A stretch of 64,000 bases of DNA from a virus (lineage: Duplodnaviria > Caudoviricetes): positions 32,001 through 96,000 of IMG/VR virus record IMGVR_UViG_3300037067_027602, one strand, 5' to 3'. Every line of letters starts with the position of its first letter. The stretch's first letter is position 1. A model generated the notes under the pieces. It had not been told where the DNA came from and ran no database searches. It worked only from the letters and a program-made list of their open reading frames with translations. Below, piece by piece: positions 20,963 through 60,933 of this stretch. The position numbers were made by a program, and so were the translations under genes.

Positions 20963-21349
20963 CTATGTCTCCACGCTAAGGTCTATCCGTCTCGGCCCTG
21001 GCATCCCCGCGGCCGCGTCTATGTAAGACTCGTATTTTGGTTCCAGATATAGGTCAACCTGTCTCATCAAAGAGATTATATGATGCTCGGACGCGAAATC
21101 GGGGAAATTCGACGGGACGCCCGTATGCTTGGACACCCCGTCGTATTTCGGGAACGCGATATGGTCCAACGCCCACGAGGAGAACGGCTGGACAAGGGTC
21201 ATCGCCGGGCTGGCCGCCCCGTCACGGGTGGGGGATGGGCTGTTCACCCCGCCCCCCGACGACGGCGACGAGGCGTTCACGGCGGCGGACGACATGTCGG
21301 CCGGATCGACTCCAAAAGCTGGGGATACCCCGGTGTTGGTGACCGCCAT
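20963..21349 (-). CDS. Small hypothetical virion-associated protein
   Basis: ATG 21349 coupled to the upstream TGA (TGATG). Confidence 0.6.
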   Translation of the reverse strand: MAVTNTGVSPAFGVDPADMSSAAVNASSPSSGGGVNSPSPTRDGAASPAMTLVQPFSSWALDHIAFPKYDGVSKHTGVPSNFPDFASEHHIISLMRQVDLYLEPKYESYIDAAAGMPGPRRIDLSVET

Positions 21350-24300
21350 CAGAAATCGTCCCCCCAATCAAAATATTTGACAGCCGGATCGTAGACGAAC
21401 GCGCCCGGAGACGCGTCCGCCCCCAAGCTGGCGGCATTGGACGATCCCACCCAATCAGAGCTCAGACTATACACCCTCTGGGACGTGTGCGCAAATGAAA
21501 TCCTGAAAAGGGCGTCCTGGGGGCGCTCCAGGGCTTTGTAGGCCGCGGACACGTAACCGTTGTCGAGGACGGTGAACGAACGGACGGAAGGGTTTCTCCA
21601 ATCCCCGGATATGCCCGTCACGTCTCCGGACAGCGCCAGCGCCGGGTTGCTGGAGACGAGAGTCCATCCTCCCCCGCGCAGGACGGCGGTGAAAATACGG
21701 TCGTCCCCGTCGACGGACCTGTTATAATAGACCCTTGTGGCGGGGTCTCCTCCGTCCGAGTCCGCCAGCGCGCTCAAGTTATACACCCCTGACGCCAACA
21801 TGGACTCCGCGCCCCATCCGGAGGCGGAGGCGTCCCTGACGAAAGTGGCGGGGGACGAGCCCGAGTATCCGGTGTAATAAAGTTTCCCCCCGAACATGCA
21901 TGGCGAGGTGAGATCCATCCCTCCGCCAAACCCGGCATCCAGCGTCGACGAGAATACCTCACCGTCCAGGGACTCGGCGAACGACAGCACGGACAATCCC
22001 CCGGACGCCCTCGCGAAACACATCGTCGCCACCGACCCCGACACGCTGACCCATGGTGAATACCCTGCCGGCAGCCCTGACACCTGCACCGGATCCCCCC
22101 ACGAGGAGGCGTCCTCCGACCACGAGACATGGATGGCGTTCAACCCGTCCTTGACGGCGGAGAACCACATCCCCCATCGGCTTCCGAATTTGGCCACGCA
22201 CGGCGAATGGGCCGCCGAGATCCCGAATTTTTCCTGGAGCGACTCATACCTCCCCATCGGCAAAGCCAGAGACCTCTCCCCGGCCCTGGAAGGGGACATC
22301 GCCCTGGCGTGGAGCAATGTCGGCTCCCCCCTTGACCCGGTCTTGGAGTACCACATGAAATATTCCATCCCGGAAGTTTTCACGACCGACGGCCTCGACC
22401 TGGATCTGGACAACGGCGTCCACACGTCCAACTCGTCCTCGTGCCCGGATGGGGGGTCGGTCGGCCATTCGACCGCCGCCTCATCGTACAAATACGCCCC
22501 GGACGAGGAGACGCGGAACTCCAGCTTTGACATGTTGAACGTCCCGGCCCCTTTCGGCGCCCAAAGAGCGAAATACACGGACAGCGACGATCCTGACATA
22601 GCCCTGGAGAGGATCTCGGGGGACGCGGACGAAAAGTCGTCCGCGGTCACCAGGTTGTATGACCTTGCACGCCACAGATATTCTCCGGCGTACGACCCGC
22701 CAAACGGGGGGAGGTCGCCGGAGGCTTCCCCGGGCAGGGCCGCCATCGGTATTGTCAACGTCGTGTAAATCCTCTCCTTTTGCGCTTCCTCCCCCTCGGC
22801 TTCGGCGTCGCCCCCGGTGTCCATGACCTCCCCCGCCCATAGATAGGAGTTGTTGTCGACGACGGACTCCACCGTCCCCGACGGGACGGAATAGGAGGTG
22901 ATGGTGGTGTCGTCGGAATGTATCCTCGAACCGGACTTGTCAAACAGCAAAGTCCGGAACGGCTCCCCCGAGGCGGACGCGAAACCCGGGTCAGGGTCCA
23001 GCTGGAATTCGCAGTAAACCTGGCATCTGGGATCATAGAGCCCGCTCGCCCCGCTCAGCACCCGGTAATCGAAAACTCCCCCTTCCGGGGAATTGCCGTT
23101 GAACCCATTGCAATAGAAACCCTGGTCTATGAGCCTCTCCCTCGCCGCCGACAGGGCGTCCAGCCTCATGTCGACATACGCCGGGAGGCCGTCTATCATC
23201 CCGGACAGCTCCTGCTCCATGTCCATCAACCTGTCGCGCCTGGTGACCCCCGGGATGACCGCCGCCGACATCCACCCCTCGTACCCCGCGCCGTCGGCCA
23301 CATTTCCGGATGCGTCGAGGAACGCGAAAAGGCCGGAGGGGGGCGGATACGACTTGAACTCCTCTATCCTGGACATCGACAGGTCGATTCCTCCGGGATA
23401 TCTGACAGGGGCCGCCAGGACGGAGGTCTCTCCGGTGTCGGGGTTGTAGTGGTAATATTGAGTCTTGCCGGAAAGCGACACGACCCCGTCGTCGCCGGTT
23501 TTCCAGGCGGGGTTGTAGTCGGCCGAGAACGACAGCCTGGGGGGCGACATCCCGTCGACTATCTTGGACGGGACTATCTCTATCGCCACGCGGCATGACT
23601 GCGTGGGGGACGATATGTAGCCTTTCGCCGCCCACACCAGCTTGTGGACGCCGCCTTGCGCCGAAGGGGACGTCCTGGAGTCCAGATGGTCGGTGTCGCC
23701 CATCACATCCCCCATGGACACCTGCAGGAAATCGCCCCCGACGCTGTACCACAAGCCCATGACGTTGTACATGTTGCCGTTGACGTCGTCTATCGAATAA
23801 GTTATGACCAATCTGCCAGTCCATGGCTCGTACTCGCACGAGATGACGTTGGGGGCGGCCGGAGCCCCTCCGCCGACCTTGAATTTCGAAGACCCCACCC
23901 AAGACGAGAACGTGTTGCTGGTCTTGTCATATTGGCGTATCCTCATCTTGTAGTCGAACCCCGGCTCCAAACCCTGCCTGCCGATGGTGTCCCAATAGTC
24001 GTAGAACGCCCCCTTGGTGGCGAGCCAGGCGTTCGCCCCCATGTCGAACGAGGCTCCGTCCAGGATGACGTCGACGTACTCCGTACTGGACCCGTCCTCC
24101 AGCAGCCTGCACACCTGGAGCTGCACGCTGGTCGTCGCCCCCATGGTCCCCCTCCAATGGAGCAGGTTGTATGAATCCCACTCCGGCTGGAGGTATGCCA
24201 TTCCAAGCTTCTGGACGTCGGCGCTCTTCCACACCCCGCCCCCCATCCTGTACAATCCCCTCTCCCAGCGGTTGGTCGGCTCCACGCGGTTGCAGAACCC

Positions 24301-60095: not shown

Positions 60096-60195
60096 AATAA
60101 ACCTCTTCGTTAATTTTTCGGCGTGGCGGGGCTGGACCGCCAACGCTACAACCATACATCAAAAGTTTACCCCGCCAAGTAAAAAAAATGGCCCG

Positions 60196-60933
60196 TCACC
60201 GCAACGGATGGAGTTTCACCAGAACCGCCGCTCGGTGCCGGTCGACCCTGGACGCCCCGGGAGCCGGCCAACTGAGGGAAGTATCCGTCCTATAGGACAA
60301 GTCATATTCTTTGACGCTATCCATTACCATGCCGTTTTTTATAGCCATGTCCTTGTCGAACAGCGGGTTGTCCGCCAGCCTGAACACGGGCATCCTGTTC
60401 TTGTACAGCCATTGCTGGACGAGATCCCCGATCCTCGAGGCCGTCCCCAGATCGCCGGCGAACACATCCACCACGAAAACCTGCTTGGTTATGGTGACTG
60501 TGCTCGTCAGGTCGAACGGCTTGGAGGTCTGGTCCACCGGCTCCACGGACACCACGGGAAGCTTGTCGTCCGTCAGCGCGTCGGAGTCCGGGAACGCCTC
60601 CATCAGCAGCTCCTGGTGGAAACTGTAGTCCGCAGTGAGCGCTCCGGACGGCTCCGCCGCCAGGATGAAGGTGTTGCGCTCGTAGTCGAAGAAAAATTCA
60701 TCCGCTCCGAGTATCCTCCCCCCGTCCTTAAACGACACATAGGAGGAATCCACGACGCCGGACGGGTTGACCGTGAGAATCTGCCTGTCGGTGGGCAAGC
60801 TTCCGGAGAAGTTGGAGTCCACCTCCAAGGCGACCCCGGAGGCGGATCCCGTGTAACCAGCCCCCTGGAGGATGATGTTCTGCACGGCGTGCAGCAAAGA
60901 CAGATGGATGTCCTGAAAGCTTATTTCGCTCAT
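60196..60933 (-). CDS. Tail terminator/completion protein (probable)
   Basis: LPVVSVE...FVVDVFA pattern; directly upstream of the tube gene. Confidence 0.55.
   Translation of the reverse strand: MSEISFQDIHLSLLHAVQNIILQGAGYTGSASGVALEVDSNFSGSLPTDRQILTVNPSGVVDSSYVSFKDGGRILGADEFFFDYERNTFILAAEPSGALTADYSFHQELLMEAFPDSDALTDDKLPVVSVEPVDQTSKPFDLTSTVTITKQVFVVDVFAGDLGTASRIGDLVQQWLYKNRMPVFRLADNPLFDKDMAIKNGMVMDSVKEYDLSYRTDTSLSWPAPGASRVDRHRAAVLVKLHPLR

Follow-up and report, generated by a model that had tools for sequence, protein, structure and literature searches.

Why should one tripeptide recur in the virion proteins of an uncultured phage several times more often than chance predicts, and only rarely in its other proteins? 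The question is raised by a stretch of 64,000 nucleotides (the window; 61.6% guanine plus cytosine, GC) that corresponds to bases 32001-96000 of the 156.5-kb virus record IMGVR_UViG_3300037067_027602, whose genome we label G000. The tripeptide is Ala-Ser-Gly or Pro-Ser-Gly, written [AP]SG and referred to below as the tag. A first-pass annotation of the window had proposed that it is the sequon of a virion glycosylation system encoded by the phage itself, with glycosyltransferases (GTs) encoded near one end of the window as the enzymes. That interpretation is partly supported by the results described here. The tag is a real virion motif that has not previously been described, and we put the probability that it is an O-glycosylation sequon of the virion proteins at about 50%, the most likely reader being a pair of adjacent GT4-family enzymes.

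The phage is siphovirus-like and has a giant tape measure protein (TMP), and nearly all genes of the window, including every one given with window coordinates below, lie on the minus strand. Hand counts of ASG plus PSG had been reported for six proteins and for the TMP, and our recount matched them exactly. The six are a distal tail protein of 1623 residues with homologs in all relatives (21349..26220; 14 sites, ASG 11 and PSG 3, with 3.4 expected), a tail protein of 922 residues (26235..29003; 9 sites, 5 and 4, with 1.3 expected), a tail protein of 374 residues (P0004, 29006..30130; 7 sites, 3 and 4, with 0.7 expected), a tail or fibre protein of 2294 residues (30154..37038; 22 sites, 17 and 5, with 3.7 expected), a protein of 978 residues encoded 3′ of the TMP gene and hub-like by position (37883..40819; 11 sites, 6 and 5, with 1.1 expected), and the putative major tail (tube) protein of 276 residues (P0021, 59265..60095; 6 sites, 3 and 3, with 0.5 expected). 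Pooled, they hold 69 sites in 6,467 residues against 10.7 expected, an excess of about six-fold (Poisson P ~1e-32), and shuffling the residues within each protein gave an excess of 4- to 16-fold (p ≤ 0.0005 for each of the six). The TMP itself (4,943 residues, 42363..57194; phrog_4211, E 2e-63) was not significantly enriched by the same procedure, with 11 sites (5 and 6) against 7.6 expected. Two smaller proteins of the tail region carry three sites each, namely a distal tail protein of 270 residues (40816..41628; 0.6 expected) and a tail or neck protein of 250 residues (60196..60948; 0.2 expected). Outside the window, enrichment was found in a protein of 168 residues encoded next to the capsid gene, a protein of 279 residues, an Ig/fn3 protein of 1380 residues and a tail fibre of 338 residues. 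Altogether, the tag amounts to approximately 110 internal, scattered sites in at least 13 proteins.

When all 8,000 tripeptides were ranked over the virion module, ASG came first (71 observed, 10.3 expected, z 19) and PSG second (36 observed, 7.1 expected, z 10.8), the next-best tripeptide having a z below 7. The permutations GSA, AGS and SAG were at or below expectation in the same module; together with the shuffles, this bears out the claim that composition is not the cause of the excess. The enzyme proteins of the window are nearly free of sites, as had also been claimed, with 3 in the 6,897 residues of its non-structural genes, a number in line with expectation. Over the whole genome the density is 8.2 sites per 1,000 residues in virion-module proteins and 1.0 elsewhere (Fisher P ~1e-29). 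The underlying DNA pattern is enriched in the coding frame only (111 occurrences versus 21 and 15 in the other frames), and the serine codons of the sites are a mixture of TCC, AGC and TCG. The signal therefore lies at the protein level, where selection acts, and a DNA-level motif was rejected. Repeats were rejected as well, because the sequences around the sites are no more alike than those around random positions; the earlier assertion that the sites are not tandem-repeat artefacts thus stands.

The tag is sharply defined at each of its three positions. In the pattern [AP]xG, serine is the only residue enriched in the middle position (111 versus 20.4 expected), and threonine (6 versus 10.1), aspartate (16 versus 13.7) and asparagine (7 versus 6.0) are not. 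Likewise, only alanine and proline are enriched before SG, where glycine, valine, serine, threonine and aspartate occur at expectation, and only glycine is enriched after [AP]S. The same three-position sharpness is seen in G001, a relative with a GC content of 42%. A generic preference for turn-forming residues would favour aspartate, asparagine and threonine as well, so the exclusive enrichment of serine argues for a motif, and the generic preference was rejected on this ground. The flanks are weakly constrained: positions −4 to −2 tend to be small or hydrophobic and poor in charged residues, position −1 tends to be serine, and the two positions after the glycine are hydrophobic, mostly valine, with no proline directly after the glycine. 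Cysteine is enriched upstream of the tag (7 versus 1.3 expected at −4, and 5 versus 1.3 at −7), and C-x2-C pairs are present in several tail proteins.

Searches with the 978- and 374-residue proteins identified a clade of phages whose tail modules are syntenic, comprising eight relatives that range from 25 to 65% GC. They are G001 (181 kb, 42% GC), G002 (178 kb, 30%), G003 (194 kb, 65%), G004 (175 kb, 44%, complete), G005 (441 kb, 25%, complete), G006 (185 kb, 65%) and two phages on Logan contigs, L006 (54%) and L077 (51%). Tripeptides were counted in the homologs of the window's virion proteins with the TMP excluded; in G005, the largest protein (3,165 residues) served only as a stand-in for the TMP. 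Counted in this way, G000 has ASG at 72 observed to 12.9 expected and PSG at 40 to 8.7 (ranks 1 and 2). The same two tripeptides hold the first two ranks in G001, with PSG at 49 to 4.9 and ASG at 36 to 6.3. The first two ranks belong to FSG (21 to 4.0) and PSG (19 to 3.8) in G002, where ASG stands at 2 to 3.5, and to PSG (18 to 3.2) and VSG (15 to 3.7) in the L077 phage, while PSG (21 to 3.6) ranks first in the L006 phage. G003 has a weak excess of PSG (13 to 3.5, P ~8e-5). There is no excess in G004 (ASG 4 to 3.9, PSG 5 to 3.3) or in G006 (PSG 1 to 3.2, ASG 6 to 4.3), and G005 has no tripeptide tag. Thus, the first residue of the tag varies by lineage, being A/P, F/P, V/P or P alone, in keeping with the earlier suggestion that different GT sets might go with different tripeptides. 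In each tagged genome the excess is limited to proteins of the virion module; PSG was never enriched in any TMP or among the non-structural proteins of the compared genomes, and the sole stray excess was that of ASG in the TMP of G003 (12 to 3.9). Because the excess occurs in genomes of 30 to 62% GC, the tag is independent of base composition.

Alignment of G000 with G001 placed 33 of 94 G000 sites in the same column at an overall identity of ~36%, the remainder having turned over. This number is well above expectation for three residues at such an identity, which points to selection on the sites. The proteins differ in this respect. In the 922-residue protein, 8 of the 9 sites share a column with a site in G001, and two PSG sites of the 374-residue protein show no or almost no variation among 9 homologs, so that the sites of both families form islands of conservation. 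The 978-residue protein shares none of its 11 sites with its homologs; all are lineage-specific gains in variable polar columns.

To what kind of structure do the sites belong? We read the G004 residues that align opposite 146 sites of G000 and G001. The first position is enriched in proline (21 versus 5.4 expected), the second is polar, and the third is enriched in glycine (46 versus 10 expected) and aspartate (17 versus 8.7), with hydrophobic residues depleted two- to three-fold and gaps at 15%. The homologous positions of G004 read P-x-G, x-D-G or x-N-G. These residues and the proneness to gaps indicate that the sites are turns or loops. A structural model of the 374-residue protein is confident only at residues 45-210 (predicted local distance difference test, pLDDT, 80-92), and all five sites in that part lie in hairpin or pre-strand turns. 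The model of the 276-residue tube protein is poor (pLDDT 57), and most of its sites fall in low-confidence loops. A turn or loop context, as would be expected of exposed sites, is thus supported by the G004 alignment and by the confident part of one model. Fold searches with these two models returned no significant match.

The first-pass annotation had assigned the modification to four GTs, two methyltransferases and a radical SAM enzyme. Two of the GTs belong to the GT4 family (GT-B fold, retaining). GT4a (382 residues, 5270..6418) scores 42-46 bits against curated family cut-offs of 26-27 (Glycos_transf_1 and Glyco_trans_1_4). GT4b (601 residues, 6423..8228) is split in G000 by an intein (Hint domain, ~6860-7265) that lies inside the catalytic E-x7-E motif, and it also has a four-cysteine insertion; the aligned orthologs of G001-G003 have no intein, and intein-free orthologs score 48-52 bits. 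The E-x7-E motif of the C-terminal domain is present and invariant in both the GT4a and GT4b families across four genomes. G001, G002, G003 and G006 each have a GT4a ortholog of ~40% identity, and the L077 and L006 phages have GT4 genes that correspond in size and position. Searches of the PDB with the GT4 sequences gave generic nucleotide-sugar domain matches only. The most conserved motif in the N-terminal part of GT4a, D-P-S-G-Y-G-E-A, which is invariant in four genomes, itself contains Pro-Ser-Gly, probably by coincidence.

The rest of the cluster consists of a GT2-like gene with a borderline score (1562-2320), a CmcI-like sugar O-methyltransferase gene identified by family search (2317-2925), a second methyltransferase gene with a weak match (2859-3512), a radical SAM gene also identified by family search (3425-4522), and an open reading frame (ORF) at 4303-5262, the supposed fourth GT, for which neither a family nor a PDB relative was found. 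Of the proposed system, only the GT4 pair is common to the tagged phages. It always lies beside a gene for a PD-(D/E)XK nuclease (8246..9415 in the window), a conserved neighbour by which the GT4 locus can be recognised in every relative, and the genes at 1562..5262 are not conserved. Different accessory genes are found in their place: GT8-like, B12-radical SAM, DegT aminotransferase, methyltransferase and GT9 genes in G001, two methyltransferase genes in G002, a further GT, Methyltransf_24 and an RmlD-like reductase in G003, and methyltransferases and an Anp1-like domain in the L077 phage. The adjacent methyltransferase was rejected as the determinant of the tag, since the weakly tagged G003 also has Methyltransf_24 genes.

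The distribution of the GT4 pair follows that of the tag for the most part, and this co-distribution is observed directly. All five strongly tagged genomes (G000, G001, G002 and the L077 and L006 phages) carry the pair. In the L077 and L006 phages the tag was recognised before anything was known of their GT genes, and contig walking then found the GT4 pair at the predicted place, directly after the nuclease gene. The complete genomes of G004 and G005 have no match to Glycos_transf_1 or Glycos_transf_2, and neither is tagged. The prediction that GT-free relatives should lack the enrichment is borne out in these two, and G004 is nested as the sister of the tagged G002 (bootstrap 98 on 5,870 columns; FastTree support 1.00); in the same trees, G003 and G006 are sisters and group with G005. 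The cluster is gone from G004, in which the flanking genes are only 1.5 kb apart. Eight sites are common to G000, G001 and G002, and thus were already present in the ancestor of G002 and G004; G004 retains one of the eight, whereas the more distant G003 retains four. An unbiased phyletic screen for G000 genes that G001-G003 share and G004 and G005 lack returned only GT4a, GT4b and a dCMP deaminase gene. The latter (L003:9771-10415, plus strand, genome 145771-146415) is found in G001-G003 and G006 and not in G004 or G005, a pattern that could hint at a nucleotide-level role of the cluster.

The mechanism that we propose as the most likely account of these observations is as follows. The [AP]SG tripeptide would be a recognition motif that selection has placed in exposed β-turns of tail tube, distal tail, fibre and head-decoration-like proteins. 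In the cytoplasm of the host, the soluble GT4 pair would move a sugar from a nucleotide sugar onto the hydroxyl group of the turn serine, and the variable neighbouring enzymes, O-methyltransferases and radical SAM here and aminotransferase, RmlD-like, GT8-like and GT9-like proteins in relatives, would then extend or tailor the glycan. The virion would thereby acquire a glycan coat attached at many sites. From the pattern of sequence conservation and gene content we infer each of three steps, namely modification of the serine, the glycan nature of that modification and the role of the GT4 pair as its enzyme. Extended to the whole clade of long-tailed phages, the proposal would be that the pair puts O-glycans on outer virion proteins, at the serine of a β-turn sequon whose first residue co-evolved with the enzyme, the acceptor preference having drifted between lineages (A/P, F/P, V/P, P only), and that sites decay once the enzyme has been lost. 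We hold this broader version tentatively, at a little short of an even chance.

Several observations weigh against the proposal. G006 belongs to the clade and is untagged although its GT4 pair is intact (41% and 36% identity), and its sister G003 carries the pair with a weak tag only; the GT4 pair is hence not sufficient. Strong tagging is limited to one of two subclades, and G002 versus G004 is the single clean phylogenetic contrast. In smaller, unrelated phages whose homologs of the pair are distant (25-33% identity), SG is in 1.3- to 1.5-fold excess and no tripeptide stands out sharply. The GT cluster sits within the replication module. Finally, the tag had been said to mark outer virion proteins only, of which the restriction to the virion module stands and the word "outer" is confounded. 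There is a single site in the exposed major capsid protein, and the portal lacks any. The 279-residue protein mentioned above, which is rich in A, S, G and P (L001:1607-2446, minus strand, genome 97607-98446), has four ASG sites where 0.3 are expected, and its gene lies between a 294-residue gene and the capsid gene in a scaffold-like position, which does not fit a confinement to outer proteins; no homolog of it was detectable in the relatives. In addition, the TMP is helical and lacks turn contexts, so the argument drawn from its low count is confounded.

How else, then, could the tag be explained? It is scarcely credible that the excess is spurious and stems from composition, repeats, a motif in the DNA or faulty gene calls. 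The proteins are indeed rich in A, S and G, and a genome of 62% GC yields many spurious ORFs, but the shuffles and permutations control for composition, the frame, codon and flank analyses speak against the other sources, the tag also occurs at 30-54% GC, and database proteins match the gene calls. The motif might instead be real and have another reader, such as a host enzyme, another serine modification (for example, phosphorylation) or a binding partner, the GTs serving to glycosylate DNA or the host surface. GTs of phages also act on host surfaces, and GTs of DNA-hypermodifying phages are known, phage GTs that glycosylate DNA having been described (Pyle et al. 2024, as cited in PMC12619734). 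The untagged G006 and the weakly tagged G003, the position of the cluster among replication genes and the shared phyletic pattern of the dCMP deaminase would all be understandable on this account. It leaves unexplained, however, why the pair is present in each of the five strongly tagged genomes, including the two in which it was predicted beforehand, and why the pair and the tag disappear together in G004. Moreover, a ThyA-like base hydroxymethylase, which would provide the usual first step to glycosylated DNA, was not found in G000-G004, and no further G000 gene matches the distribution of the tag. We consider another reader unlikely, while regarding it as an alternative of real weight.

Alternatively, there might be no reader at all, with x-S-G being a turn that certain lineages prefer for some physical property of value to long-lived virions, such as stability of the fold or avoidance of the labile Asn-Gly and Asp-Gly pairs, and with the loss in G004 being a coincidence. 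Relatives do read P-D-G, x-N-G or x-D-G at the turns in question, a few PSG sites are kept even in the GT-free G004, and NG is under-represented in G001 (0.70). Avoidance of the labile pairs is nevertheless a weak candidate, since DG remains over-represented in the tagged genomes (1.36, 1.21 and 1.57). Stability gives no reason why only alanine or proline should precede SG, or why lineages should switch to phenylalanine or valine; the enzymes of the same phage have turns and no excess, and G004 has the same folds and no tag. A turn without a reader thus strikes us as improbable. Another biochemical route to an Ala-Ser-Gly signature is the 4-methylideneimidazol-5-one (MIO) cofactor of ammonia-lyases, which forms from this tripeptide, and we dismissed it by reasoning, because a cofactor that depends on its fold cannot account for ~110 sites spread over unrelated structural proteins.

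If the GT4 pair does glycosylate the tag, the system would have precedents of a partial kind. To our knowledge, glycosylation of the virion has been described for very few cultured phages, and no sequon for it has been defined; our literature searches for a phage glycosylation sequon found nothing. In bacteria, HMW1C-type N-glycosyltransferases act on N-X-S/T, and a GT4 pair, GtfA/GtfB, acts on serine-rich adhesins. The phage pair resembles both in being a proposed soluble, cytoplasmic GT system guided by a short linear motif, and it resembles GtfA/GtfB further in being a GT-B pair directed at serine. The motif, the substrates and the sequences are unrelated, only generic GT4 matches having been found. 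GtfB is, in addition, a non-catalytic partner, whereas both phage GT4 proteins keep E-x7-E, so that an arrangement with one dead partner is not supported. The first-pass annotation had pointed to the Ser-Gly acceptor of animal proteoglycans, whose xylosyltransferases are Golgi enzymes with a motif that has acidic flanks. The likeness extends to the specificity for serine and the need for a following glycine and no further, because the tag has A or P before the serine and hydrophobic residues after the glycine instead of acidic flanks, and the GT family is different. The closest comparison is with mycobacteriophages, which encode the glycosylation of their capsid and tail tube (Freeman et al. 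2023, as reported in PMC11256854 and PMC12619734). As in that system, a tailed phage here encodes GTs and methyltransferases of its own at a locus separate from the structural module, and a glycan shield is proposed that would cover surface proteins of the virion, the tail tube among them. According to the same secondary accounts, the mycobacteriophage glycans are found at the C-termini of capsid and tail tube subunits; the sites described here are internal, scattered and defined by a tripeptide, and the capsid is nearly untouched.

Were the tag confirmed as a glycosylation site, glycosylated phage proteins and their exact sites would become predictable from sequence alone, including sequence from metagenomes, and bacteriophages would have a glycan shield written in a readable code. 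Cytoplasmic glyco-engineering would also gain a candidate tool in a small GT4 pair whose acceptor spans three residues, and the clade would serve as a natural experiment on how such a shield arises, drifts and decays. Such a shield might protect against proteases, reduce aggregation or sticking to decoy surfaces in the aquifer, or help to evade surface defences of the host. Even if the tag is not a glycosylation site, a virion tripeptide under such strong selection would still need an explanation.

The genomic setting can be described briefly. CheckV classified the record as linear and 89% complete. DNA of the phage is present in groundwater and landfill metagenome runs, with no RNA runs among the listed sequencing runs that contain it. 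A search for a near-identical phage gave no match, and an IMG/VR scan with the capsid protein found no relatives. Family searches identified a replication block in the window (primase, the PD-(D/E)XK nuclease and a DnaE-like gene) and, just beyond the window, a terminase with inteins, a portal and an HK97-type capsid protein. PHROGs and Pfam searches of ten virion proteins found no family; since the large proteins encoded downstream of the TMP gene match none, "hub" and "tail tube" are positional labels, the latter being accompanied by weak tube-like fold matches only.

A few minor observations may be added. The large terminase (1,110 residues; L001:5386-8718, minus strand, genome 101386-104718) contains two apparent intein-like insertions, with matches to Hint_2 and Intein_splicing, and its G001 ortholog has 574 residues. 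In G003, a dATP/dGTP diphosphohydrolase-like gene (L036:18149-18865, minus strand) lies beside the nuclease and GT4 locus and hints at a modified purine in the DNA of that phage. G013, a 43-kb IMG/VR phage with a distant GT4 homolog, encodes periodic K-G-D-T-G repeats (DTG 44 versus 6.1 expected), probably in a collagen-like or fibre repeat protein. In G005, proteins with tandem G-T-W-x-x repeats are encoded at 263814-268145 and 295198-296096 (GTW 48 versus 4.4 expected), and the GTW/NGT excess of this genome was rejected as a tag because it is a tandem repeat and not scattered. Lastly, the TMP ranges from 3,991 to 7,216 residues across the clade, which, by the tail length rule of ~1.5 angstrom per TMP residue, would correspond to tails of ~0.6 to 1.1 micrometres.

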